Both the position numbers and the translations under genes were made by a program. This document shows positions 1 through 12,056 of a stretch of 12,056 nt of DNA, in pieces. The notes below the pieces were generated by a model. It was not told the DNA's origin, did not search any database, and saw only the letters and a list, made by a program, of their open reading frames with translations. The number at the start of each line of letters is the position of its first letter. Positions within the stretch are counted from its first letter, which is position 1. This DNA is from Candidatus Bathyarchaeia archaeon (lineage in GTDB: Archaea; Thermoproteota; Bathyarchaeia; Bathyarchaeales; Bathycorpusculaceae): NCBI GenBank assembly GCA_038883715.1, contig JAVZLS010000023.1:1-12056 (forward strand). Direction: 5' to 3'.

Positions 1-1748
1 GCTGCTTCTTTGACTGCTTCCCTCTCCTCTTCCGGTAGTTCACAACCTTCAAGCCATATTGACGCAAGAACAGCGAAGTCTGGGGGTATAACCTCTCTAT
101 CGATTCTGACGTCTAGGACAGCTGGTTTTCCGGAGTCCACAGCCCTTTGCAGGGCAGGTTTTATTTGGGATGGCTCGACAATCCTCTCGCCGTAGCAGTT
201 CATGCCCCTCGCCACTTCGTCATACCTTATGTCTGAGAAATCGACCCCAATATGTCTTCTCGAATAGAACAGCGTTTGTCCAGCCCTTATCATTCCCCAA
301 GCGCAGTCGTTCAAAACCACGAACACTATTGGCAGTTGGAGGCGGCTTGCAGTTTCAAGCTCTTGAATGTTTAAGCCGAAGGCTCCATCACCGGTTATGC
401 AGTAAACATGCCTTTCCGGATGGGCAAGTTTTGCTGCAATGGCGTATGGGATTCCAGCGCCCAAGTGTCCAGAATCACCACTAACACAGCTAATGTAGGT
501 GTTTGGTTCATAAACCCTGTTTAGGTAGAAGCACCAAACGGCTGTGTTTCCTCCATCAACAATTGTTATAGCGTCTCCCGGGAAGAACTCCCTGACCTCC
601 CTCACCACGCGTAGCGGATGAATTGGCACGGTGTCTAATCGTGACATTTCCTCAAAATTTTCAAGCCACATCCTTTCTAGACGCTTATAATCCTGAAGGA
701 AGGGATTCTCTTTCCTAGGAGGCGTATACTTTTTAAAGGCTTCCAACAAAGCCTTAAGCGTTGCTTTCGCATCACCCACAATTCCTAAATCAACAGGTCT
801 GTTTAAGCCTATCATGTCGCCTGAAATGTCTATCTGAATGATTTTCTGCTTGGGTGGTTCACCCCACGCCGGCGGTTTCCCCCACATATCCAAGGCTCCA
901 AGTCTGCAACCAACGAGAAGAACAACGTCAGCCTCAGCCTGAGCCACAATAGCCCCATTGCCCGGCGCCGCTGGAATAAGGCATAGGGGATGGTCTTCAG
1001 GTATTGCTCCTCTTCCACTCATTGATGTAGTAACAGGGGCTTGTAGGTATTCAGCCAATTCCATAAGCTCTTTTGATGCTCCAGACCTTAGAACACCGCC
1101 GCCGGCATGTATTAGAGGTGTTTTCGCTTCTGCAAGCATTCTTGCAGCTTTGTCTATGAGAAATAAATCTCCGACAGGCTTTTCCATGACCCTATAACTC
1201 TTTGGAGGCAAAATCTCCACTTCCGCCTCCTCTCCAGTTTGGAATAGAACATCGGAGGGAAAATCTAGATGCACCGGGCCTGGTTTTCCGGACATTGCCG
1301 CCCTAAAAGCCCAATGGGTAAGTTCTGGGATGCGTTTCCAATGGGAAACCACAGCATTCCATTTCGTAACCGCTTTAAAGAGCGTTAATTGATCAAGAGC
1401 TTGTTGGGAACCTTGGTCTGGGTATGAACGCCAAGACTGATTTTGAGCCGTAATAACAACTATCGGTATGCTGTCAGCAAAAGCCGGATAAACACCTCCA
1501 ATAAGGTTTGCAGCTCCTGGACCAACCGTTCCTATACAGACTCCAGGCTGCCCAGTCGTTCTAGCCCAAGCGTCAGCGGCGTGAGCTGCAGCGGCCTCGT
1601 GGCGCATTGTTATGAATTCTATGCGCTTATCCTTGTAAATGGCATCCAATAGGGGGCATAGCTGGTCTCCGGGAACTCCGAAAACGTAGCGGACGCCTTC
1701 CTGAATTAAGCAGCGTTTCAAAACTTCGCCACCAGTTATGCGAGCCAT
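1..1748 (-). CDS. Thiamine diphosphate-dependent enzyme (acetolactate synthase-like / HACL-ILVBL-like fold), 3' end runs off the window
   Basis: Hand translation from ATG at 1748 gives an uninterrupted frame of about 582 codons to the window edge: MARITGGEVLKRCLIQEGVRYVFGVPGDQ..RHEAAAAHAADAWAR..GTVGPGAANL..GKPGPVHLDFPSDVL..DGGNTAVW..GHLGAGIPYAIAAKLAHP..ITGDGAFG..VVLNDCAWGMI. Catalytic Glu (RHE) and the GDG..ND ThDP-binding motif are present. GGAG lies just upstream of the ATG. Missing from the ORF track because its stop lies outside the window. Confidence 0.92.
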   Translation of the reverse strand, partial: MARITGGEVLKRCLIQEGVRYVFGVPGDQLCPLLDAIYKDKRIEFITMRHEAAAAHAADAWARTTGQPGVCIGTVGPGAANLIGGVYPAFADSIPIVVITAQNQSWRSYPDQGSQQALDQLTLFKAVTKWNAVVSHWKRIPELTHWAFRAAMSGKPGPVHLDFPSDVLFQTGEEAEVEILPPKSYRVMEKPVGDLFLIDKAARMLAEAKTPLIHAGGGVLRSGASKELMELAEYLQAPVTTSMSGRGAIPEDHPLCLIPAAPGNGAIVAQAEADVVLLVGCRLGALDMWGKPPAWGEPPKQKIIQIDISGDMIGLNRPVDLGIVGDAKATLKALLEAFKKYTPPRKENPFLQDYKRLERMWLENFEEMSRLDTVPIHPLRVVREVREFFPGDAITIVDGGNTAVWCFYLNRVYEPNTYISCVSGDSGHLGAGIPYAIAAKLAHPERHVYCITGDGAFGLNIQELETASRLQLPIVFVVLNDCAWGMIRAGQTLFYSRRHIGVDFSDIRYDEVARGMNCYGERIVEPSQIKPALQRAVDSGKPAVLDVRIDREVIPPDFAVLASIWLEGCELPEEEREAVKEA

Positions 1749-1796
1749 ACAAATCTCCACACTAAAATATGGTGGCTTTAGGTCTTATCGATTTTA

Positions 1797-1848: not shown

Positions 1849-1883
1849 CTGTTTTGCCGCAGAAATTTTACAGCGGTGATTCT

Positions 1884-3731
1884 ATGCCTAGGGGTTATAT
1901 GGGGAAAATTCTAAGAGTAAACTTGACCACTAAAAGCTTGAAGGTTGAGCCAACTTCCGAAGAAGTTGCAAGGAAATATCTAGGGGGTAAAGGTTACGCC
2001 GTATACCTCCTCTACAAGTATTTGAAGGAATATGAGAAGGCTGGAATTTCACCAAAAGATATTGACGCCTTAGGTCCAGAAAATGTTCTAATATTTGCAA
2101 CAGGACCCGGAACCGGCGTGCCGGGCTTTCCATCTTCTGGCAGATATCATGTAATGGCGCTGAAGTCGCCGTTGACAGGCTCTGTTGGAAGTGCAAATTC
2201 AGGTGGGGAGTTTGGCCCTTTCCTAAAGTTTTCCGGCTTTGACGCCATTGTAGTTGAGGGAGTCTCAGAGACTCCCATATACTTGGCTGTTGTGAATGGG
2301 GAGGCCGAATTAAGAGATGCGAGTAACCTTTGGGGTAAAAACGTGTTTGATACTTGTAGAATATTGAAGGATAAGGTTGGTGGCAAAAACACAAGCGTTG
2401 CTTGTATCGGGCCTGCTGGTGAGAATTTGGCGTATATGGCTTGCATAGTTAATGACGAGCACAGGGCTGCGGGGAGAACAGGCGTTGGGGCTGTTATGGG
2501 TTCGAAGAAGCTTAAGGCCATTGTTGTTTCTGGAGAAGAAAAGGTTCCAGTTGCTAAGCCAAAAGAATTCTCAGAAGTTTCAAAAAGATGCTTAGATGCT
2601 CTTAAAACTAACGCTGTCACTGGTGTTGGACTGCCAACATACGGCACAGCCATACTTATAAACATAATTAATACTGCTGGCGGACTGCCATACAAAAATT
2701 GGCAGACAGGTGTGAACCCAGACGCGGAGAAGATAAGTGGTGAAACTCTTGCAGAAAAATATCTGTCCAGTCGGAGGTCGTGTTGGGGCTGCCCAATTGG
2801 TTGTGGAAGAGTTACAAGCGTCAAGTCTGGGCCGTTCCAAATTTTGGCTTCAGAAGGCCCTGAATACGAGTCTGTTTGGGCTTTGGGAAGCAGCACAGGA
2901 GTTAAAGATTTAGATGCTGTTGTTAAGGCAAACCACTATTGTGACGAGTTTGGACTGGACCCAATAAGCATGGGCTCAACAATAGCAGCGGCCATGGAAC
3001 TTAATGAAAGGGGGTACATTCCACAAGAAGATCTGCAAGGCTTGGACTTACGTTTTGGAAATGCCGCGGCCCTTGTGGAGGCAGTTTGGCGAACAGCCTA
3101 CAAAGCTGGATTTGGGAAATACTTGGCCTTGGGTTCAAGGAAGCTCTGCGAGATTTATGGGCATCCGGAGCTTTCCATGAGCGTTAAAGGCTTGGAAATG
3201 CCAGCCTACGACTCGAGAGCCATAAAAGGTATAGGGCTAAACTATGCCACAGCGAATAGGGGAGGCTGCCACGTAACCGGGTACACGGTCTCTCCAGAAG
3301 TTTTAGGAATACCAGAAAAAATAGACCCGTTGAAGACTGAAGGAAAGGCGAAGTGGGTTAAAATATTCCAAGACTTCACATGTGTGGTTAATTCAGCCGT
3401 GAACTGTTTGTTTACAACCTTCGCTTTAGGAACGAAGGACTACGCTGAGCTTTTGTCAGCAGTCACTGGATGGGAGCTGACGGAGGATGAAATCCTAAGA
3501 ATTGGAGAGCGTATCTATAACCTAGAAAGGGTCATAATCAATAAGTATGGATTCGATGGAAAAGATGACACTTTGCCAAAGCGCTTGTTAGAGGAGCCTA
3601 TGCCAGAAGGACCAGCAAAAGGCCACATAACAGAGCTTGAAAAAATGAAGGAAGAATACTATAAGTTGCGCGGCTGGGTCAATGGCGTTCCAACAAAGGA
3701 GAAGTTGGCTGAGCTTGAAATAGAACTTTAG
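1884..3731 (+). CDS. aor: Tungsten-containing aldehyde:ferredoxin oxidoreductase (AOR family), 615 aa
   Basis: GYMGKILRVNL N-terminus, KSPLTG, RAAGRTGVGAVMGSKKLKAI, CWGCPIGC (4Fe-4S ligands), GPEYE, CDEFGLDPIS, KGLEMPAYDSR, NRGGCH, EYYKLRGW. Start moved from TTG 1854 to ATG 1884 because GGTGAT precedes it and family similarity begins there. Confidence 0.96.
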   Translation: MPRGYMGKILRVNLTTKSLKVEPTSEEVARKYLGGKGYAVYLLYKYLKEYEKAGISPKDIDALGPENVLIFATGPGTGVPGFPSSGRYHVMALKSPLTGSVGSANSGGEFGPFLKFSGFDAIVVEGVSETPIYLAVVNGEAELRDASNLWGKNVFDTCRILKDKVGGKNTSVACIGPAGENLAYMACIVNDEHRAAGRTGVGAVMGSKKLKAIVVSGEEKVPVAKPKEFSEVSKRCLDALKTNAVTGVGLPTYGTAILINIINTAGGLPYKNWQTGVNPDAEKISGETLAEKYLSSRRSCWGCPIGCGRVTSVKSGPFQILASEGPEYESVWALGSSTGVKDLDAVVKANHYCDEFGLDPISMGSTIAAAMELNERGYIPQEDLQGLDLRFGNAAALVEAVWRTAYKAGFGKYLALGSRKLCEIYGHPELSMSVKGLEMPAYDSRAIKGIGLNYATANRGGCHVTGYTVSPEVLGIPEKIDPLKTEGKAKWVKIFQDFTCVVNSAVNCLFTTFALGTKDYAELLSAVTGWELTEDEILRIGERIYNLERVIINKYGFDGKDDTLPKRLLEEPMPEGPAKGHITELEKMKEEYYKLRGWVNGVPTKEKLAELEIEL

Positions 3732-3783: not shown

Positions 3784-4065
3784 ATGGTATCTGTAAAAAT
3801 TTTGCTTTTCGCAACTTTGCGAAGCAAATACAAAACTAGGGAGCTCGCTGTTGCATGTGATGGATCACTCTTAAGCATGATTGAGAATGCGTCTAAAATA
3901 CTGGGGCTAGAATTTATTGACGACGTTTACGATAGAAATAGGGGAAAAGTTAGGGACGACATGATAATCATGGTGAATGGACGAAACATTAAGGATTTGA
4001 AGGGAGAGATAACCCTAAAAGACAATGATGTAATAGCCATATTCCCCCCTCTGGCCGGAGGCTAA
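3784..4065 (+). CDS. moaD: MoaD/ThiS-family ubiquitin-like sulfur carrier (SAMP-like), 93 aa
   Basis: VKILLFATLR N-terminus, MVNGRNI, LKDNDVIAIFPPLAGG with C-terminal Gly-Gly. Directly downstream of aor, as is common for W/Mo-pterin enzymes. Confidence 0.92.
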   Translation: MVSVKILLFATLRSKYKTRELAVACDGSLLSMIENASKILGLEFIDDVYDRNRGKVRDDMIIMVNGRNIKDLKGEITLKDNDVIAIFPPLAGG

Positions 4066-4085: not shown

Positions 4086-5378
4086 ATGGATGACGGGTTT
4101 CCAGAGGCTCTACAGATAGAAGTTACAAACAAGTGCAACTTCAACTGCAAAATGTGCATTAGGCGTGTTTGGAACGCAAAGCCATTGGACATGGACATAA
4201 CCCTATACAGAAAAATTGCTAGGGCATGCTTTTCAAGATTGAGAAGGCTTATGCTTTATGGCTTCGGAGAACCTTTTATCCATCCACATATTCTTGAAAT
4301 GCTCCGCATAGCCAGAAAAAACCTCCCGGAAAATGGAGAAATTATCATAAGCACAAACGGCTCGCTAATAGCTCCAAAAACTGCCAACAAAATTGTAAAG
4401 GAAATAGGCGTTGACTCCATATCTTTTTCCATAGACACCATCAGCCAAGCCAAACTAAGCCGCATAAGAGAGGGCTCCGACTTCAAATTAATAGCCAATA
4501 ACATCATAGAACTAGCAAGGAAAAAGGACGAGGCTAAAAGGGATTTTAAGCTAGGCTTAGAAACAGTCATAATGAAGGATAATTTCCTAGACATTCCAGA
4601 ACTAGTCAAGTTTGCAGCTTTGAACAATGTTAACTATATAATAGCATCTCACATTGTGCCATACATAAAGGAGATTTTCAATGAAACTATGTATCTAACT
4701 TTGAGCAAGCCAACAATTGAAATACTGAAACCATCACTGAAACACGGGTGGAACCTTATACGCGAATCTACCTTAGAGCTTTTCGACAAAGCTTACGGTG
4801 TGGAAATGGAAACCGCCCCAACCCAGCTTATCAGAAGCTTTTGGGCCAAAGCTGAAAAGAAGGGCTACTGGATTAATCTACCCTTACTTTTAAGCTCTAC
4901 AGAAAAGCTTGACGCGTTGAGTCATCTTGAGAAAGTTTTACAAAAAAGCGAGAAAATCGCACACAAATACCAAATTGATTTGAGGCTGCCAAATCTATAC
5001 CCAGACGCCAAGAAAAGAACATGCCCCTACATTGAAAAGAGAACTTTAACCATAAGAAGCGATGGGAAAGTTTCACCATGCCAAGATTTCATGTACACTC
5101 ACCCCTACTATGTTAATGCCCACAAGAAAGATGTCCATGAAGTAATCTTCGGGGATGCAGTAAAAGAAAAGGTTGAAGAAGTTTGGCAGCGAGACGCTTA
5201 CGCCAAATTTAGAGAGGTTAGGCGGGACATGGCTAAAAACATGCCTTGGTGTGGAGACTGCCCCTACTCGGCTTTAGGATGCTTTTATACAAAAACCAAT
5301 GAAGTTGACTGTTACGCAAATACGCCCACGTGCAACGAGTGCCTATACAGTGTTAACTTGGCACAATGCAACATTTGA
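4086..5378 (+). CDS. Radical SAM/SPASM protein, tungsten-cofactor oxidoreductase maturase-like (Cmo / TIGR04317-like), 430 aa
   Basis: IEVTNKCNFNCKMC (CxxxCxxC), GFGEP, STNG, and a Cys-rich C-terminus CPY..DGKVSPC..PWCGDC..GC..DCYANTPTCNECLYS..QC. Located with aor-moaD. Confidence 0.85.
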   Translation: MDDGFPEALQIEVTNKCNFNCKMCIRRVWNAKPLDMDITLYRKIARACFSRLRRLMLYGFGEPFIHPHILEMLRIARKNLPENGEIIISTNGSLIAPKTANKIVKEIGVDSISFSIDTISQAKLSRIREGSDFKLIANNIIELARKKDEAKRDFKLGLETVIMKDNFLDIPELVKFAALNNVNYIIASHIVPYIKEIFNETMYLTLSKPTIEILKPSLKHGWNLIRESTLELFDKAYGVEMETAPTQLIRSFWAKAEKKGYWINLPLLLSSTEKLDALSHLEKVLQKSEKIAHKYQIDLRLPNLYPDAKKRTCPYIEKRTLTIRSDGKVSPCQDFMYTHPYYVNAHKKDVHEVIFGDAVKEKVEEVWQRDAYAKFREVRRDMAKNMPWCGDCPYSALGCFYTKTNEVDCYANTPTCNECLYSVNLAQCNI

Positions 5379-5388
5379 AGACGCTATT

Positions 5389-6699
5389 CTATTCGAGAAG
5401 CAGCGAGACTGGTCCGGCTTTCCAGGCTTCTATGGCGGCTTTCAGTTCTGGATGTTGTTCGGCATACTGCTCCAGTGGAATTCTGTTCATTGTGGCTTCT
5501 ATGGCTTGCCTAAAGGCTTTCGCGCCAGCTCTAGGCCCCATTGGATGAGCGTGGATTGCTCCGCCAGCTCCTATGGCTATGTCTGTGCCTAAATCGCTTA
5601 TTAGCTGTGGGACGTGGAGCTGTGTTATTCCGCCTGATGGCATGGGCAACGTAGGCTTGATGTTGTGCATCGGGAAGAGCATGGTTCTGCCAGTTTTCAA
5701 GTACTTCTCTTTTAAGAAGAAGGGTTGTTTCCCATAAGGCGCCGGATAAACAAGTATGTCTGCACCCGCAAGTCTCGGAAGCTTTGCCAGGGTTAAGTGG
5801 GATGACATACCCGACTCTGGGTCCTCGTAAATGGCTCCGGCGAAGTCCATGTGGCCTAAAATTGGAACCTTTGTGCTTGGGTCTTCGGCTAAAGCCTTTA
5901 AAACGCCTATGCCTGCCACTAGGTGGTTAACCATTATGGCATTGGCTCCGAGCTCTATGACCTTCTCTGCAAACTCGAAGATTTTCGGTGCGTCCGCCGT
6001 CACATTTATCGTATACATTTTCTTTTCTCCAGTTTCTTGGGCGGCCTTGTCAACAACTTCCATGTACTTTACAATTCGGTCTTCCACCGTATTGAAAGGC
6101 GCATTGGCTAAGAGCTCATCGTCTTTAACAAAGTCTGCACCGCCCACCAAAGCCTCGTAAGCGAGCTTTGCGCCCACATCTGGCGGGTAACCGGTGCAAG
6201 GTTTAATCATATTGTTAAGTATTGGCCTCTTATCGATTTTCAAGTACTCCCTCAAGCCTTGAACACCGAATTTTGGTCCCTTAAACATTTCAAGATAGCT
6301 TTTTGGAAAAGTTATATCTACGAGCTTCAGTCTTCCAGCCATGGAAATGTTGCCAATAACAGTTGTTAAAAGCATTGAAATTTCGTTCATGAAATTCTCG
6401 TAGGGGTAGGCTATCTGAACGATATAACGCCTTAGCTTCACATCAGTTGGAACCTCATATTCAAAGTCTGGGACCTCGTTTATGGCGATTACTTTGGCTA
6501 TATGCCTCTTCCGCAGCTCGATAGTTTCGCCCGGAACGCGGATCCACGTCCCTGTGCTTTGCTCAACAGCCACGGCCATGGCAATTTTGTCTATAGGCCA
6601 TTCTCGTGGGACAGCCGCGTAGTAGGTGGCTATCACGTATTTTTCGGGGTCTATCCCCTCTGGTAAAGCTAGTGGAAGGGCTTCAATTTCTTCCGACAT
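5389..6699 (-). CDS. RuBisCO-like protein (form IV RLP), 436 aa
   Basis: EQSTGTW, TTVIGNIS, GPKFGVQGLR, NMIKPCTG, GGADFVKDDE (KDDE at 6115-6126), GHMDFAGA, YGK, PMPSGG, GAGGAIHAHPMG. Lacks several RuBisCO catalytic residues. SD GGTGA upstream of ATG 6699. Confidence 0.95.
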   Translation of the reverse strand: MSEEIEALPLALPEGIDPEKYVIATYYAAVPREWPIDKIAMAVAVEQSTGTWIRVPGETIELRKRHIAKVIAINEVPDFEYEVPTDVKLRRYIVQIAYPYENFMNEISMLLTTVIGNISMAGRLKLVDITFPKSYLEMFKGPKFGVQGLREYLKIDKRPILNNMIKPCTGYPPDVGAKLAYEALVGGADFVKDDELLANAPFNTVEDRIVKYMEVVDKAAQETGEKKMYTINVTADAPKIFEFAEKVIELGANAIMVNHLVAGIGVLKALAEDPSTKVPILGHMDFAGAIYEDPESGMSSHLTLAKLPRLAGADILVYPAPYGKQPFFLKEKYLKTGRTMLFPMHNIKPTLPMPSGGITQLHVPQLISDLGTDIAIGAGGAIHAHPMGPRAGAKAFRQAIEATMNRIPLEQYAEQHPELKAAIEAWKAGPVSLLLE

Positions 6700-6743
6700 T
6701 AAATTTCACCAACCTAGTCAACTCTATAGATGAATTGTTGCGG

Positions 6744-6760
6744 TAATAAATATGTACACT
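6744..6760 (-). promoter_or_regulatory. Possible internal TATA element upstream of the RLP gene
   Basis: Minus strand ..GTGTACATATTTATTAC.. in the 62 nt gap between the kinase and RLP genes, about 45 nt upstream of the RLP ATG. Confidence 0.3.
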
Positions 6761-6761
6761 T

Positions 6762-8318
6762 CTATTCGGCTTTCAAGTTTAGCCTACGGTACATTTGCTT
6801 ATTATTCTTATAGATATTTTGGAACTCCTTGAAGATTCTCTCGTACACAGCAGCGTTTTGCGGATTCGGCTCATAAACAGCGTCTATTTTTACCAATTTT
6901 TCAGAGTCCTCGAAGCTCTTGATATGGCCCAAGGCAATTGTGGCAATTATTGCTGCTCCTTTTGCACCTGCCTCTTTCGGGTCGCTAACCCTATTTATTT
7001 TCTTGTTTAGGGCGTCTGCGAATATTTGGCACCAGACGTCTGATATGGCGCCTCCGCCTATGATGTTTATGCTTTCAGCTTTTCCCGCAAGCTTTTCCAT
7101 ATAAAATAAAGCCCACTTTATGTTTAGGGCGACGCCTTCAAACACCGCCCGCACCATGTGTTCTCGTGTGTGCTCAAGGCTTAGGTTGTGGAAGCCGCCC
7201 CTAACCGTTGGGTCGTCCAGTGGTGCTCTTTCGCCGAAAAGCCAAGGCGTAAATATTAAGCCGTCTGCACCCGGCTTAACTTTTGCGGCCATCTCGCTGA
7301 AAAGCTTGTAAACATCTGCTTCCAGGCTTTCCTTAAACATCGTGTCTTTCAGCCAGTCTAGGCATGCTCCAGCTGTCTCTTGTTCGGCTACACAAAGATA
7401 CGTGTCTGGGTTCGCACTGCAAATGCTGCCAATATAATGGAACAGGTCCTTTTTTCTTTCAGAAAGGTGGCAGCCCAGCCAACCACTCGTTCCGACATAA
7501 GCGTGGATTTTTCCCTCCCTTACCGCACCAGAGCCCACTGCCGCTGAAGCAACGTCGCCAGCTCCGACAATAACCGGTATGCCTTCTAGCAACTCCATTC
7601 CCGCAGCTGCTTCTGGAGCAAGTTTTCCAGCTACATCGGTGGCCTTTCTTATCTCTGGAAGTTTAGCCTTATCTATTCCATACTTTTTGAGAATCGTGTC
7701 TGACCAGTTGAATCTTCCCTTTCTCGTGTCCATCATCCACCAAATGTTGGCGTAGTCCCGGCTAATTACGAAGTTTCCTGTGCACTTGTAAACGAGGTAG
7801 TCTTTGCAGTCGAGGAACTTGTAGGTTTCATTGTAAATTTTCGGCTGGGTCTCTTTAACCCATAAGATTTTGCATATGGGGTCTTTCCCAACATGCCCAT
7901 AAATTCCACCGGTTATGCTCAGAAATCTTATAAGGGTTAGAAGCCCATATCCGGCAACTTTTATCAGTCCCTTGCTCATTTTTTCGGCTTGCTCTTTAGC
8001 TCTTGTGTCAAGCCATATCATGCAAGGCATTAATGGCTCGCCGTTGCTGTCCACCGGTAATGTGCCGGACATCTGCGTAGTAAATATAATAGCTGCCACT
8101 TCTGAAGGCTTAACCTTCGCCTTATCTAAAAGCTCCCGTGTTGTCTTTGTGACGGCGTTCCACCAGTCTTGAGGGTGCTGCTCAGCACACCCCTTTTTCG
8201 GATAGTATACCGGGTATTCGGCTGATGTATGCCCAACAATTTCGCCATTTAGTCCTACGAGCACAGCCTTGTTACTTGTAGTCCCAGTGTCGTGGGCGAG
8301 AATGTATTTCCCTTTCAA
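6762..8318 (-). CDS. FGGY-family carbohydrate kinase (xylulokinase-like), 518 aa
   Basis: AHDTGTTSNKA, AEQHPQDWW, WLDTRA, KDYL, GAGD, VGTSGW, PWLFGERAP, RAVFEGVA, GGGAISDVWCQIFAD, EAGAKGAA. TTG start overlaps the upstream TGA stop (TTGA). Confidence 0.95.
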   Translation of the reverse strand: MKGKYILAHDTGTTSNKAVLVGLNGEIVGHTSAEYPVYYPKKGCAEQHPQDWWNAVTKTTRELLDKAKVKPSEVAAIIFTTQMSGTLPVDSNGEPLMPCMIWLDTRAKEQAEKMSKGLIKVAGYGLLTLIRFLSITGGIYGHVGKDPICKILWVKETQPKIYNETYKFLDCKDYLVYKCTGNFVISRDYANIWWMMDTRKGRFNWSDTILKKYGIDKAKLPEIRKATDVAGKLAPEAAAGMELLEGIPVIVGAGDVASAAVGSGAVREGKIHAYVGTSGWLGCHLSERKKDLFHYIGSICSANPDTYLCVAEQETAGACLDWLKDTMFKESLEADVYKLFSEMAAKVKPGADGLIFTPWLFGERAPLDDPTVRGGFHNLSLEHTREHMVRAVFEGVALNIKWALFYMEKLAGKAESINIIGGGAISDVWCQIFADALNKKINRVSDPKEAGAKGAAIIATIALGHIKSFEDSEKLVKIDAVYEPNPQNAAVYERIFKEFQNIYKNNKQMYRRLNLKAE

Positions 8319-9556
8319 GGTCCCTTAACCAGCGATTCCAAACTTAGCTTGTGGACTTTCCCGTCTTTATCTATGTGTTCAACGCGGATAGGTAAGCCTA
8401 CAGTTCCACCTATCCTTATCTTCTCTTTAGCAAGCATGAACAACTCAATTGGGTTTACGACGGCTTCTGGTGGAAAAACGCCCTTCAGCTTTATCCTACC
8501 CATAGCCATAAGCATAGTACCCAAGGCTGCTGGCACTCCGGTTCCCTCCCTCATGCCCATACCCCTTGAAGACATCGAAAAAACATACGTGCTCGGTTGT
8601 CCCTTCTTCCTGCCTTTTACAACTATTTTTAGGCATCCCATAGGCTCTGTTATTCCAGCCTCCTTCAACAATTTTGGTCTCTGATGCAGTGCAAAAGCCA
8701 CTGCAAAGTCTATAGGTGCAATTTTCTTTCCATTAACTTCTATAGGCTCTTCACCTGTCATTCCAAGGCGCACAATACCCTTAATGAGTTCAGCATAGGC
8801 TGGTGGCAAAACCAAGCCGAGGTTTGTGACTCGGCGAACACCTTTAATGTACCTTGGAAGGGTTATCGTTTCCGGATGGGGATAAGCGTAAACTCTGTAG
8901 GTTCCGACATCCGCAAACTCAACATCCTCCTCTAAAGCTTTGCCACTTTCCTCAAGAACCTTAACAGTTTTAAATTCTCCATCTAGAAACATTGGCACTG
9001 GTATTATCATGGAATGTATTCTATGCTTAACAACAGCTGGGCCTTCAGTTTCTTCACCGCCATGAGCATGATAAATGTCTATGGATTCAACCTCGTCTAG
9101 AAGCATGTCTGCACAGAACTTGACGAGAACATTTGCAACACCCGGGGAGCTACCCATGCCTATAAGGGCTGAAATCCCAGCCTTTTTTGCCTCAGCATCC
9201 ATTTTAAGTAAGGCTTCAGTTGCATCAACATCATCACATATGTCAACATGATTTACTCCGGCCGCTATGGACGCCTTCAAAACTATTGGAGCATACTTGT
9301 AGAATGGACCCACACAGCTTAGTACAACATCAGACCCCTTAATCGTCTTCTGAAGCTTGCTTGAATCTGTAACATCTATCTTAACCGCTGAAACTCCTTT
9401 AATGCCTATTTCTGAGGCAAGCTTCTTTGCCTTTTCAAAGGCCACATCCCCAATAACAACTTCTGAAAATATTCCGCTTGAGGCCAGAATTCTAACAGCC
9501 ATACTTCCAATAGTCCCAGCTCCACCCAAAACAGTAACCTTCACATTCCACACCAT
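8315..9556 (-). CDS. Saccharopine dehydrogenase-family NAD(P)-dependent amine oxidoreductase, about 410 aa
   Basis: VTVLGGAGTIG Rossmann motif, CVGPFYKY, VDICDD, GMGSSPG, HPETITLP, TGVPAA. Alternative start is GTG at 9544 (MKVTVLGG) with GGTG upstream. Confidence 0.88.
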   Translation of the reverse strand: MVWNVKVTVLGGAGTIGSMAVRILASSGIFSEVVIGDVAFEKAKKLASEIGIKGVSAVKIDVTDSSKLQKTIKGSDVVLSCVGPFYKYAPIVLKASIAAGVNHVDICDDVDATEALLKMDAEAKKAGISALIGMGSSPGVANVLVKFCADMLLDEVESIDIYHAHGGEETEGPAVVKHRIHSMIIPVPMFLDGEFKTVKVLEESGKALEEDVEFADVGTYRVYAYPHPETITLPRYIKGVRRVTNLGLVLPPAYAELIKGIVRLGMTGEEPIEVNGKKIAPIDFAVAFALHQRPKLLKEAGITEPMGCLKIVVKGRKKGQPSTYVFSMSSRGMGMREGTGVPAALGTMLMAMGRIKLKGVFPPEAVVNPIELFMLAKEKIRIGGTVGLPIRVEHIDKDGKVHKLSLESLVKGP

Positions 9557-9580
9557 CCTTCAAAATATGTTCGGGTACGA

Positions 9581-9590
9581 CTTTATTTAG
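9581..9590. promoter_or_regulatory. AT-rich TATA-like element in the divergent oxidoreductase/MFS intergenic region
   Basis: CTTTATTTAG reads TTTATTTA on plus and TAAATAAA on minus, centrally placed between the two divergent starts. Confidence 0.35.
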
Positions 9591-9643
9591 CATTTGTGGA
9601 ATATGAGCAGATAGCAAAACATATCAATGTGAAGGATGCAAAC

Positions 9644-10876
9644 ATGAGAAGCATGGAAAAAGCAAAGGGCCTTTCTTACCGTTGGGTTGTTCTGCTCTCA
9701 TACATGATCGTGGCTGTTGTATCGCAAATACTTTGGCTTAACTTTGCACCAATAACAAAGCCAATAATGACATCCATATTTGACGTAACCGAATCCGACG
9801 TTGGACTCTTATCAATGGTTTGGCCGTTGCTCTTCATACCAATCTCCATACCAGCTGGAATACTTATCGACAAGAAAGGCTTCAAGTTTGGAGTTTCCGT
9901 AGGCGCATCAATAATGGCGCTGTTCGCGGTCTTGCGGATATTTTCCGGAGAAAACTTCACATTACTTCTAATATTTCAGTCATGCGCCGCACTTGGCCAA
10001 CCATTCGTTTTTAACGCTATATCAAAGCTTGTAACCTTATGGTTTCCCTTTGAAGAACGCGCCTTAGCCACTGGAATCGGAATAATGGGACAATATATTG
10101 GAATGATAATTGCTTTGACGCTGACGCCTTTTCTTGTGCCAAGCGAGGAAATCATGTTGCTAACAAACATGCTAATAATTTACGCCTTCATATCTGTTGC
10201 TGGTGCCGTCCTCTTCATCGCGCTTGCCAAAGAAAAACCCAAGACCGACTTAATTGGAGGTCCCGAGGAAGTTAAGGCTTCCATTTCATCCAGCGAAGTT
10301 AAGAAATTTTTCGGAAAAAGGGACTTCATGATACTTGAAGCCTTGTTCTTTATTGGTGTTGGGCTTTTTACAGCTCTACTCACTTGGCTGGAAACCATAT
10401 TGCAAGAACGTGGACTCACAGTTACTGGAGCTGGACTTGTCGGCGGAGTAATAATTATTGGAGGAATTTTCGGATCACTGATTATTCCTGGGATCTCAGA
10501 CAAGGTTACGCAAAGGAAACCCTTCATAATAGTTGATTTGGCTGTTGCCGCCGCCGCGCTTTTCCTTTTAGCTGAAATTAGCGATTTCGCCATATTGGCT
10601 GGGGTAGGCTTTGTTCTCGGATTTTTCTTCATGTCAGCTTTGCCGATAGGCCTAGAAATGTCAGCTGAAATTGTTGGTTCGGCATTAGCCGGGAGTGCTT
10701 CAAGCTTTTTGTGGCTCTTTTCACAGGCTGGCTCTGTTGTCTTCATTATACTCATGGATGTTATTAAATCCGCCACCGGAAGTTACTACCATTCAGTTAT
10801 ATCAATCCTAATATTCGACATAATTGCACTGTTGCTCTGCTTACTGTTAAGGGAAACTGCGAAAACTAAAAGCTAA
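9644..10876 (+). CDS. MFS transporter, FLVCR/SLC49-like, about 410 aa
   Basis: About 12 hydrophobic segments. YRWVVL..SQILWLNFAPI, LSMVWP..PAGILIDKKG, GQPF..SKLVTLWFPFEERALATG, GISDKVTQRK, LPIGLEMSAE. Start ATG 9644 preferred over GTG 9596 because GAAGGA lies upstream (ATG 9653 also possible). Confidence 0.92.
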   Translation: MRSMEKAKGLSYRWVVLLSYMIVAVVSQILWLNFAPITKPIMTSIFDVTESDVGLLSMVWPLLFIPISIPAGILIDKKGFKFGVSVGASIMALFAVLRIFSGENFTLLLIFQSCAALGQPFVFNAISKLVTLWFPFEERALATGIGIMGQYIGMIIALTLTPFLVPSEEIMLLTNMLIIYAFISVAGAVLFIALAKEKPKTDLIGGPEEVKASISSSEVKKFFGKRDFMILEALFFIGVGLFTALLTWLETILQERGLTVTGAGLVGGVIIIGGIFGSLIIPGISDKVTQRKPFIIVDLAVAAAALFLLAEISDFAILAGVGFVLGFFFMSALPIGLEMSAEIVGSALAGSASSFLWLFSQAGSVVFIILMDVIKSATGSYYHSVISILIFDIIALLLCLLLRETAKTKS

Positions 10877-11562
10877 ATTCTGAAAACCTTAAACTTCTTC
10901 TTGAGTGCCTCCAAATCTATGCTTCCAACTTTGGCAAAAAGCTTCCTTTTCAAGGTTTCCCAGTTTACTGTATCTTTTCCAGCCAGCAGTGTGGCGACCA
11001 GTTGAACTTTAGCGCACTCCTCAACCATTCTAGTTAATAGTAAGGCTTCTTCAATTGTGGAGCCAACGGTTATCAAACCATGATTCTCCAAAATAACAGC
11101 ATTATAGTCTCTAACCAGTTTCTGGACGGCCTCAGCCAACTCTTTAGAGCCGGGCAACTCGAATGGCACTATTGGAACCCCGTTTGGAATATATAAGAAC
11201 ATTTCCACTTGTAATGGAATTATTTCTGTTCCAACTATCCCAAAGGCTGTTGAAAAGGGAGCATGAGTATGAACAACTCCTCCGACATCGCTCCTCACTC
11301 TGTATATGGCTATGTGTAAAGGTGTCTCTATAGAGGGGGCCAACTCTCCTTCAATTTTATTTCCATCTGAATCCACAATAATCAAATCTTCAGCCCTCAA
11401 AGAACCCATGGAAACACCGGATGGCTTTATCAAAACTCTATCTGTTCCGGGGATTCGGGCACTTATATTTCCCTCGTTTCCAATTACAAGGTCATAGTCG
11501 TACAATTGCTTACCAACATTCACCAATCTGCCTCTTAAATCACGAACAGCGTCCTCGATCAT
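10873..11562 (-). CDS. Class II aldolase/adducin family protein (FucA/AraD/MtnB fold), 229 aa
   Basis: GNEGNISAR, IKPSGV, PSIETPLHIAIYR, VVHTH and LENHG (three metal-binding His). SD AGGTG upstream of ATG 11562. Stop overlaps the convergent MFS stop by 4 nt. Confidence 0.93.
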   Translation of the reverse strand: MIEDAVRDLRGRLVNVGKQLYDYDLVIGNEGNISARIPGTDRVLIKPSGVSMGSLRAEDLIIVDSDGNKIEGELAPSIETPLHIAIYRVRSDVGGVVHTHAPFSTAFGIVGTEIIPLQVEMFLYIPNGVPIVPFELPGSKELAEAVQKLVRDYNAVILENHGLITVGSTIEEALLLTRMVEECAKVQLVATLLAGKDTVNWETLKRKLFAKVGSIDLEALKKKFKVFRI

Positions 11563-11601: not shown

Positions 11602-12056
11602 TTACTCTTTTATTAGGTATCCGCCGAACCCTATTGCCCATAAAAGAATTGGATAGGCTATCATGCGCTCCATTCCGCCAACACCCAAGCCAAGGTCAAT
11701 TTTCAGTCCAAAGAGTATGAGCGCCACCAGCGAGATTACGCCCAAAACAACTGCGAAGTGGGATAATGGAGCTTTTTGGAACTTGTAGGAGGCTATTGCT
11801 GATAAGGCTCCGAAAAGAAATGCTATTAACGAGACTGCAAGGTGTATTGGGCCGAAGTCTTCTGGGAATACTCCAACACCCATGGCGCCAACTCCACATA
11901 AGATTAGAAGGCATAGAAAGACCTTATTGGCAATTGTTTTCTTCAGAAAGTAGGCGCCAGCCACAACGGTTAAGCCAAGCACAAAAACTGAAGCATTGAA
12001 AATGGGTGCGGAGACTACACCAAGTTTTCCAAGGTCGCTTATGTAATTTCCAGAGA
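11602..12056 (-). CDS. DUF998-family membrane protein, 5' end outside the window
   Basis: Frame is open from the window edge: SGNYISDLGKLGVVSAPIFNASVFVLGL..GVGVFPEDFGPIH..GGMERMIAYPILLW. The NYISDLG..IFN, GVFP..H and ER motifs are typical of DUF998. Confidence 0.8.
   Translation of the reverse strand, partial: SGNYISDLGKLGVVSAPIFNASVFVLGLTVVAGAYFLKKTIANKVFLCLLILCGVGAMGVGVFPEDFGPIHLAVSLIAFLFGALSAIASYKFQKAPLSHFAVVLGVISLVALILFGLKIDLGLGVGGMERMIAYPILLWAIGFGGYLIKE

Follow-up and report, generated by a model that had tools for sequence, protein, structure and literature searches.

The DNA analyzed here (the window) is one entire contig of 12,056 bases (C23; accession JAVZLS010000023.1) from a Candidatus Bathyarchaeia genome (G000; 1.33 Mb, 41 contigs, 90.3% complete). 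The open reading frame (ORF) listing together with Pfam and NCBIfam scans gives ten genes in the window. Three of them, all on the minus strand, are the main subject of this report: a form IV RuBisCO, or RuBisCO-like protein (RLP; 5389-6699; 436 aa), a FGGY carbohydrate kinase (6762-8318; 518 aa, TTG start), and a saccharopine-dehydrogenase-like (SDH-like) NAD(P) oxidoreductase (8315-9556; 413 aa). The RLP belongs to the RuBisCO superfamily (RuBisCO_large, PF00016, 190.7 bits, cut-off 30.1; RuBisCO_large_N, PF02788, 52.7 bits, cut-off 20.7), the kinase matches FGGY_N (174.4 bits) and FGGY_C (112.9 bits), and the oxidoreductase exceeds the cut-offs of Sacchrp_dh_NADP (PF03435; 60.7 bits, cut-off 25.1) and Sacchrp_dh_C (PF16653; 45 bits, cut-off 31). 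Next to them are a major facilitator superfamily (MFS) transporter resembling FLVCR (9596-10876, plus strand; MFS_1, 119.5 bits) and a class II (metal-dependent) aldolase/epimerase-family protein (10873-11562, minus strand; 229 aa; Aldolase_II, PF00596, 177.5 bits, cut-off 22.2).

A first-pass annotation, made from the sequence alone, had named these five genes, and the ORF listing returned all of them at the coordinates it gave. It had also described the oxidoreductase and the kinase as coupled through a TTGA overlap. Inspection of the sequence confirmed this: the stop codon of the SDH-like gene overlaps the TTG start of the kinase gene (cTTGAaa at 8318-8315). The ATG of the RLP gene is preceded by a 62-nt spacer that holds a GGTGA-like site. 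The MFS gene is divergent from the SDH-like gene and convergent with the aldolase gene, which it overlaps by 4 nt. The layout as first described, with three co-oriented genes, a divergent MFS gene, and an adjacent aldolase gene, was correct in every detail.

An alignment of 29 relatives of the RLP served to retrieve loci from species-representative genomes. At least 600 pattern matches were obtained, at least 518 of which encode RLP relatives, and the best 80 loci of these 518 (designated by L numbers) were used for a census of neighboring genes by tblastn. Full flanks, defined as at least 4.5 kb upstream and at least 3.2 kb downstream of the RLP gene, are available for 41 of the 80 loci. The archaeal carriers among the 80 loci are Bathyarchaeia, Desulfurococcales, Baldrarchaeota, Thorarchaeota, Hadarchaeales, Theionarchaea, and a Scotarchaeum metagenome-assembled genome (MAG); Asgard archaea are counted among the carriers of the RLP clade. 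The bacterial carriers belong to the Chloroflexota (Anaerolineae, Dehalococcoidia, and Thermoflexia), Actinomycetota, Bacillota, and Cryosericota.

The FGGY kinase is a near-universal neighbor of the RLP clade; its gene lies within 2 kb of the RLP gene in 68 of the 80 loci, and among the 41 with full flanks, 39 show this proximity. An SDH-like enzyme is encoded within 4.5 kb in 35 loci (17 with full flanks). Clustering of all ORFs in the loci revealed a fourth recurrent neighbor, a class-III aminotransferase (Pfam, 288 and 189 bits), which lies within 4.5 kb in 31 loci (18 with full flanks). One or the other of these two amine enzymes is found near the RLP gene in 65 of the 80 loci and in 35 of the 41 with full flanks; both occur together in one locus (L063) and in none of those with full flanks. 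A class II aldolase within 5 kb was found in only 13 loci (8 of 41), and an FLVCR-like MFS transporter within the same distance in 11 (7 of 41). The core module is thus an SDH-like enzyme or a class-III aminotransferase, an FGGY kinase, and an RLP. The first-pass annotation had expected all five families to travel together; the three co-oriented genes do so far beyond chance and across archaeal and bacterial phyla, whereas the aldolase and the transporter do so only in part.

The association was also found when the search started from the dehydrogenase. In 201 genomes of the class to which genome G151 belongs, the SDH-like query matched eight places in six genomes. The RLP gene adjoins the SDH-like gene at seven of the eight, and at the eighth a kinase gene adjoins it within the 1.5-kb flank that was fetched. 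Among 151 Bathyarchaeia genomes, SDH-like orthologues (at least 59% identity) occur only in G000 and G009, and the one in G009 adjoins an RLP gene; the other Bathyarchaeia matches are paralogues with 27-44% identity. Metagenomic relatives number 3413 proteins for the RLP and 1646 for its SDH-like partner.

We calculated a maximum likelihood tree of the 80 RLPs, rooted with form III RuBisCOs and with the short row L016 excluded, and mapped the type of amine enzyme onto it. The partner type changed at least six times; strongly supported branches alone force four to five changes, and shuffled labels give about 22. The class-III aminotransferases are of at least two divergent types, with 53-98% versus 20-23% identity to one reference (30% for the protein from L063). 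Among 20 members scanned against the curated families, none fits any of these families. Two genomes with the aminotransferase type were searched whole, and no SDH-like orthologue was found in them at an E-value of 1e-20.

There is precedent for such an exchange, because lysine 6-dehydrogenase and lysine aminotransferase are alternatives, as are BioU and BioA; in both pairs a protein of the saccharopine dehydrogenase fold replaces a class-III aminotransferase. By analogy with these pairs, the exchange is the strongest argument that the third function of the module would be the interconversion of an amine and a carbonyl. The amine chemistry proposed in the first-pass annotation thereby gains an independent argument, the two enzyme families replacing each other and almost never occurring together; what that proposal says on the class of substrate, on a ketose as product, and on the sequence of the steps stays conjectural. 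The only locus in which an SDH-like gene (divergent and upstream) and a class-III aminotransferase gene both adjoin the RLP gene (L063:1-4303) is on a 4.3-kb contig, on which no kinase gene is visible.

The SDH-like protein contains a GxGxxG motif, and its second Rossmann strand ends in an invariant aspartate (Asp37). Its family-specific invariant motifs are HAHGGE, YAYPHPETITLP, and RVTNLG, and many His, Asp, and Glu residues are invariant; the mean column identity of the aligned sequences is 69%. In a Foldseek search with the AlphaFold model (predicted local distance difference test score 92.1, predicted template-modeling score 0.91), the top matches were carboxyspermidine dehydrogenases, with template-modeling (TM) scores of 0.75-0.84, 19-23% identity, and an E-value of 9e-30. 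L-lysine dehydrogenase (TM 0.65-0.77), saccharopine reductases, and BioU followed. As far as is known, all of these enzymes carry out NAD(P)-linked redox chemistry at a terminal CH2-N carbon. From its modeled structure, the SDH-like protein is a putative C-N (amine or imine) oxidoreductase. Since the structural relatives act on a terminal CH2-N carbon, a product at the aldehyde level would be favored over a ketone such as the ketose that was first proposed. An aspartate at the position of Asp37 in a Rossmann fold goes with a preference for NAD+, and the invariant Asp37 suggests NAD+ rather than NADPH and an oxidative role. In locus L003, a second SDH-like gene (L003:15351-16625), about 4 kb downstream of the RLP gene, clusters with the dehydrogenase of the module.

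The kinase appears from its sequence to be a pentulose-kinase-like FGGY enzyme similar to XylB. XylB is the family with the best E-value, and its model (TIGR01312) matches all 26 clade-associated kinases that were scanned; the kinase of the window scores 353.9 bits against this model, below the cut-off of 380.25 bits. The best E-value among the 26 is 1.8e-108, from which about 363 bits can be computed, and none of them appears to reach the cut-off. Two loci have two FGGY kinase genes near the RLP gene (L036:2661-6097; L076:2834-4414 and 8452-10002), and the second kinase gene in L076 is paired with an FLVCR-like MFS gene.

These two proteins could be taken for a polyamine dehydrogenase and an ordinary xylulokinase that happen to lie beside a separate RLP gene, with the adjacency a matter of history. 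The carboxyspermidine dehydrogenases as nearest solved structures and XylB as best kinase model agree with this explanation; however, the linkage is seen in at least eight groups of phylum rank, with the gene order rearranged, the search with the SDH-like protein led back to the RLP gene at seven of eight places, and the kinases fall short of the XylB cut-off. The carboxynorspermidine synthase model (NF043000) was rejected for the dehydrogenase, which scores 46.5 bits against a cut-off of 800, and the model for carboxynorspermidine decarboxylase (nspC), the partner expected of such an enzyme, found no match in the 90.3%-complete genome. We regard a chance neighborhood of unrelated genes as scarcely credible.

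The RLP does not reach the cut-off of any curated RuBisCO or RLP family against which it was compared. It scores 344.5 bits against one MtnW model (NF007095, cut-off 409) and 294.5 bits against the other (TIGR03332, cut-off 513.6), 290.8 bits against form III RuBisCO (TIGR03326, cut-off 497.45), and 197.9 bits against OiaX (NF042437, cut-off 700). The earlier placement of the RLP outside the characterized clades therefore holds for those that could be tested. The closest solved structures are YkrW/MtnW proteins and the Chlorobium RLP (236-252 bits). Structure 2qyg, which we take to represent the Rhodospirillum-type clade and which is the only solved chain compared for that clade, scores 208 bits, lower than the MtnW chains (about 250 bits). 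The mean column identity of the aligned RLPs is 69%, as for the SDH-like proteins. The RLP is the sole RuBisCO-family gene in G000; a form III enzyme above the cut-off is present in 16 of the 61 genomes of the class that were searched.

To compare active sites, the RLP was aligned with four form III RuBisCOs of other Bathyarchaeia and, using HMMER, with MtnW (2oek) and the Chlorobium RLP (1tel). We assume that the numbering and the roles of RuBisCO residues (given in parentheses) apply to the corresponding positions. The RLP keeps E46 (E60), T51 (T65), W52 (W66), N117 (N123), K166 (K175), K192-D194-E195 (K201, D203, and E204), H283 (H294), K324 (K334), S355-G356-G357 (S379 and G380/381), and G379-G380 (G403/404). 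In contrast, K177 is replaced by Cys168, R295 by Met284, H298 by Ala, and H327 by Val; the His-Met pair is directly followed by an aspartate, Asp285, that does not vary within the clade. With R295, H298, and H327 of the second phosphate site lost, the substrate would carry a single phosphate, held where the first phosphate of ribulose-1,5-bisphosphate (RuBP) binds; such a monophosphate is what a single FGGY kinase would make. Among the residues kept by the clade, E60 and K334 are absent from MtnW, and T65, N123, and K334 are absent from the Chlorobium RLP. The GK(98)LS motif of MtnW (2oek), in which Lys98 (Geobacillus kaustophilus numbering) is presumably the general base, aligns with GN(117)IS in the RLP, and N117 is invariant in the 29 aligned clade members.

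A bona fide form III RuBisCO was rejected as an identity for this protein, the TIGR03326 cut-off being missed and K177, R295, H298, and H327 being lost. An MtnW-type enolase was rejected as well: both cut-offs were missed, Asn117 stands in place of Lys98, and the partner genes mtnK, mtnA, mtnB, mtnX, and mtnD are absent from the window. The best E-value against NF007095 among the 29 clade members is 2e-122, which computes to about the 409-bit cut-off, and it is the bacterial members that approach this value; this closeness explains why public sources label members of the clade 2,3-diketo-5-methylthiopentyl-1-phosphate (DK-MTP-1-P) enolase.

The closest solved relatives of the MFS protein are five FLVCR1/FLVCR2 chains (E-values of 2.6e-25 to 1e-21; the next family is at 8.6e-08), and the FLVCR-like label it was first given holds. 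One of the FLVCR structure entries bears the name choline/ethanolamine transporter. Against TIGR00903 the protein scores 111.5 bits (cut-off 391.85), which puts it outside that curated subfamily. The listed GTG start (9596) leaves 39 nt between the divergent MFS and SDH-like genes. The true start is probably an in-frame ATG at 9644 or 9653; with either, the length of the protein would be nearer to that of close homologues (414-415 aa), and about 90 nt of A/T-rich spacer would separate the two genes.

Of the 13 closest Bathyarchaeia loci, 10 retain the block of aldolase, MFS, SDH-like, FGGY, and RLP genes, and the outer flanks change. As for the other three, L006 is cut by a contig end, L010 has only an 84-aa remnant of the MFS, and L013 has neither the aldolase nor the MFS gene. 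Elsewhere the recurrences are few, though suggestive: an aldolase homologue (about 40% identity) lies upstream of an SDH-type module in two Actinomycetota loci (L065 and L077), the Cryosericum locus L076 has a 226-aa aldolase-like ORF (30% identity) and a 34%-identical MFS gene 7 kb away, and L080 carries a 39%-identical MFS gene. The transporter and the aldolase are lineage-specific accessories. They belong mainly to one Bathyarchaeia subclade and not to the core of the pathway as had been proposed; the five-gene version is valid for that lineage only.

The translated aldolase shows a His-x-His motif, a later His, and a Glu, which we take to be the metal ligands and the catalytic acid. The 25 models listed for it, which include the FucA, AraD, MtnB, OtnC, and Ru1P-aldolase equivalogs, all stayed under their cut-offs (best, PRK06557, 159 versus 251 bits). 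Its closest solved relatives are 6BTD (E-value 3.2e-28) and then L-fuculose-1-phosphate aldolases. According to PMC6079011, 6BTD is DrdA; this aldolase acts on 5-deoxyribulose-1-phosphate in the disposal of radical-SAM by-products. The aldolase gene is the sole PF00596 gene in the genome. On other contigs, the genome encodes an MtnA-family/ribose-1,5-bisphosphate-isomerase-family protein (C2:65227-66207; 399 bits) and 5'-methylthioadenosine phosphorylase (MTAP; C8:43695-44399; 296 bits), both over their cut-offs.

These findings bear on the reading of the module as a variant route for the salvage of S-adenosylmethionine (SAM) by-products (5'-methylthioadenosine and 5'-deoxyadenosine). The kinase would then act on a 5-substituted pentose or pentulose, the RLP would be a DK-MTP-1-P enolase or a Rhodospirillum-type methylthioribulose-1-phosphate isomerase, the aldolase would be a dehydratase or an aldolase of the dihydroxyacetone phosphate (DHAP) shunt, and the aminotransferase would make methionine from the keto acid. 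The two MtnW models are the best-scoring NCBIfam models of the RLP, the public labels on its relatives agree, MtnA-family and MTAP genes are present, and DrdA is the best solved relative of the aldolase. A HAD phosphatase gene follows the module in four loci, and a class I/II aminotransferase is encoded in four archaeal loci. The RLP itself argues otherwise, however, through Asn117 and through its scores below both MtnW cut-offs, and 2qyg, if it is assigned to the right clade, may point away from the Rhodospirillum type through its lower score. In addition, MTAP and MtnA already yield a phosphorylated ketose, so that the near-universal FGGY kinase would be left without a role, and there is no known precedent for an SDH-like enzyme replacing a keto-acid transaminase. 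We take the carrier lineages to be anaerobes, and these are unlikely to use the classical pathway with its later step that requires oxygen. Overall, we consider a salvage route of this kind rather improbable.

We give about an even chance, judged from the genes, to the three genes forming one functional module that converts an amine-bearing polyol or sugar to a central sugar phosphate and releases nitrogen. From the sequences we infer which class of substrate is used, that the route is catabolic, in what order its steps follow, what type of reaction the RLP performs, and what the transporter and the aldolase do. An amine-bearing polyol or sugar would be imported, in the Bathyarchaeia subclade probably through the FLVCR-like carrier, an amino alcohol being a cation. 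The SDH-like enzyme would oxidize the C-N bond of the substrate with NAD(P)+, and hydrolysis would give a carbonyl compound, most likely at the aldehyde level, and ammonia or an amine; in other lineages the class-III aminotransferase would carry out the equivalent step. The XylB-like kinase would phosphorylate a terminal hydroxyl of the carbonyl product once. The RLP would bind this monophosphate in its retained first phosphate site and, through the enediolate formed at the carbamylated-Lys/Mg2+ center, isomerize or epimerize it to a standard intermediate. Where an aldolase is present, it may cleave the product to DHAP and an aldehyde, and the latter would be taken by aldehyde:ferredoxin oxidoreductase (AOR) or alcohol dehydrogenase. 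As substrates, the data separate none of ethanolamine (which would give glycolaldehyde), 2-amino-tetritols and -pentitols, ketosamines (Amadori products), and SAM-derived 5-substituted pentoses.

In several phyla, the module has TetR or ArsR-type regulators, MFS or ABC transporters, and sensor kinases on its flanks. In one Actinomycetota locus (L059:11531-13851), genes for a GXGXG-motif protein and a glutamine synthetase directly follow the RLP gene, and this glutamine synthetase hints at a link to nitrogen assimilation. Together with the glutamine synthetase, the patchy distribution of the module, and the invariant Asp37, the repressors, transporters, and sensor kinases suggest that the module is catabolic.

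The same enzymes could run in the opposite direction. The FGGY kinase would phosphorylate a ketose, and the RLP would rearrange the product into the phosphate of an aldehyde or ketone. Reductive amination by the SDH-like enzyme, or transamination by the class-III aminotransferase, would then give an amino-deoxy sugar phosphate or an aminopolyol, which could become part of a lipid head group or a cofactor or serve as a solute. Two characterized relatives returned by Foldseek, carboxyspermidine dehydrogenase and saccharopine reductase, run reductively in vivo and form amines. The Dehalococcoidia and Bacillota loci have the genes in the order kinase, RLP, and amine enzyme, as this biosynthetic route would have them, and the module is widespread and well conserved (see the mean column identities above). 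On the other hand, the local repressors, importers, and sensor kinases suggest inducible uptake, the occurrence of the SDH-like orthologue in 2 of 151 Bathyarchaeia genomes and in 6 of 201 genomes of the G151 class fits an optional catabolic trait better, and Asp37 suggests NAD over NADPH, if the rule for Rossmann folds applies. We judge a biosynthetic role to be unlikely.

Several observations weigh against a catabolic amine module as proposed above. Neither amine enzyme is found in 6 of the 41 loci with full flanks (L027, L029, L054, L058, L064, and L067), and the Theionarchaea loci among them (L027 and L054) are also without a kinase; given these loci, the amine step may be an optional feeder. 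The 80 loci are the top of at least 518 confirmed relatives and include many close kin, and the counts from them are not counts of independent events. Gene order varies, with the SDH-like gene first in some loci and last in others, and it therefore gives no information on the sequence of the steps. Proteins with the class-III aminotransferase fold include mutases, racemases, and lyases as well. The aldolase is absent near the RLP gene in 67 of the 80 loci and the transporter in 69. As the sole class II aldolase of the genome, DrdA-like and accompanied by MtnA-like and MTAP genes elsewhere, the aldolase may instead serve in the disposal of 5-deoxyribose or methylthioribose as a DHAP-shunt aldolase; the nearby AOR and iron-dependent (Fe) alcohol dehydrogenase, with a presumed part in aldehyde handling, would fit either role.

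A further point concerns the RLP. The equivalents of E60, N123, and K334, presumably the residues that serve CO2 addition in RuBisCO, are kept, and a simple isomerization may therefore be too modest a guess. Because these three residues are retained beside K175, carbamyl-K201, and H294, a CO2-linked reaction at a C-C bond is conceivable, i.e., carboxylation with cleavage, or decarboxylation, of an amine-derived ketose monophosphate. We consider this a long shot. If true, it would mean a previously unknown carboxylase or decarboxylase that is widespread in subsurface Chloroflexota, Bathyarchaeia, and Asgard archaea.

MtnW/YkrW (2oek from Geobacillus kaustophilus and 2zvi from Bacillus subtilis) and the RLP of the window share the superfamily and the fold, the KDDE metal/carbamate motif, K175, H294, and the first phosphate site (SGG and GGG-type loops), and a monophosphate substrate is expected for both. 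They differ in the E60 and K334 equivalents and Asn117 of the window RLP, in its scores below the MtnW cut-offs, and in its partners, an FGGY kinase and an amine enzyme instead of the products of mtnK, mtnA, mtnB, mtnX, and mtnD. The RLP of Rhodospirillum rubrum is reportedly, from the work of Erb et al. in 2012, a 5-methylthioribulose-1-phosphate 1,3-isomerase of the 5'-methylthioadenosine (MTA)-isoprenoid shunt. The mechanism that we consider most likely for the window RLP, an enediolate-based migration of the carbonyl in a ketose monophosphate, resembles this reaction; the R. rubrum-type system, however, is not known to have a kinase or amine enzyme as partner. In the breakdown of acid sugars and apiose, RLPs (OiaX, which is 3-oxo-isoapionate-4-phosphate decarboxylase, and its relatives) act after a dedicated kinase in a catabolic operon for an unusual sugar, as would be the case here. 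Their kinases are of the DUF1537 family and not FGGY kinases, their pathways have no amine step, and the window RLP scores far below the OiaX cut-off.

The routes for L-fucose, L-rhamnose, and 5-deoxyribose (DrdK/DrdI/DrdA) also employ a kinase followed by a class II aldolase that yields DHAP and an aldehyde. The window resembles them in its FGGY kinase, DrdA/FucA-like aldolase, and AOR, and relatives add an Fe-alcohol dehydrogenase; however, those routes are without an RLP or an amine enzyme, and here the aldolase is outside the conserved core. Carboxyspermidine dehydrogenase, L-lysine 6-dehydrogenase, saccharopine reductase, and BioU have the fold and both Pfam domains in common with the SDH-like protein, which differs from them in its low identity (19-23%), in its own invariant motifs, and in having no decarboxylase partner in the genome. 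An actinobacterial RLP described in PMC7325909 has a DeoR/epimerase context and is a different case; passages of PMC13454268 contain nothing on RLP subclades.

Literature searches for an RLP paired with a saccharopine-dehydrogenase-family enzyme, an FGGY or other carbohydrate kinase, or an aminotransferase found none in article texts; this agrees with the first-pass annotation, which knew of no RLP context with a saccharopine-dehydrogenase-family enzyme. Searches on RLPs in Bathyarchaeota and on RLP genome neighborhoods returned work on form I relatives and on Calvin-cycle genomes. Among 40 of the 137 RLP papers published since 2019 there was likewise nothing on this module, although an earlier mention in a neighborhood table is possible. 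A pathway for an unusual sugar in which an RLP acts after its own kinase is of a known kind, represented by methionine salvage, the MTA-isoprenoid shunt, and acid-sugar/apiose catabolism. What is new is the RLP clade, its FGGY partner, and an amine-converting step for which either of two enzyme families can serve. That the pathway is real, widespread, and uncharacterized has strong genomic evidence behind it.

To our knowledge, the functions established for RLPs so far number only about half a dozen. Each of them has revealed a way of re-using the RuBisCO active site and has contributed to ideas on the origin of carboxylation. The present clade is large, with at least 518 confirmed relatives in species-representative genomes and with carriers that include Bathyarchaeia, Asgard archaea, Dehalococcoidia, and Anaerolineae. 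It offers a testable three-enzyme hypothesis with a natural control, as the dehydrogenase and the aminotransferase replace each other. Solving the module would give a function to many genes now mislabeled "DK-MTP-1-P enolase" and "saccharopine dehydrogenase" and could uncover a new source from which subsurface anaerobes obtain carbon and nitrogen.

The remaining five genes of the window lie on either side of those described. The first encodes an acetolactate-synthase-like thiamine pyrophosphate (TPP) enzyme (3-1760, minus strand), which is under every curated cut-off (best 407.9 bits versus 538). It is followed on the plus strand by genes for AOR (1854-3731; AFOR_N 255 bits, AFOR_C 512 bits), a MoaD/ThiS-like protein (3784-4065), and a radical-SAM/SPASM protein (4086-5378) that matches the model of a tungsten-cofactor oxidoreductase maturase with 266.5 bits, under the cut-off of 380. 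A gene for a DUF998 protein (11602-12054, minus strand) lies at the other end. The trio of AOR, MoaD/ThiS, and maturase genes also adjoins the RLP module in L002, L004, and L007; it is present in part in L003, L009, and L016 and absent in L011 and L012. In relatives with longer contigs, the TPP enzyme gene is followed by a gene for an Fe-alcohol dehydrogenase (L002:14940-17956), and the same Fe-alcohol dehydrogenase cluster lies near the RLP module, independently, in the two Actinomycetota loci L065 and L077.

The closest relatives of the genome are Bathyarchaeia MAGs from hot springs. The public sequencing runs that contain the stretch are hot-spring metagenomes only, and no RNA run is listed among them.

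A protein of about 119 aa is encoded near the RLP gene in six loci from three phyla, either directly after it or a few kb away (L021:5390-5749, L027:11313-11669, L054:11316-11672, L033:12994-13362, L035:15570-16022, and L058:12751-13119). Two of the carriers are the Theionarchaea loci without kinase and amine enzyme. The protein matches the N-terminal domain of HMG-CoA reductase (85 bits) and, weakly, the beta subunit of C-glycoside deglycosidase.

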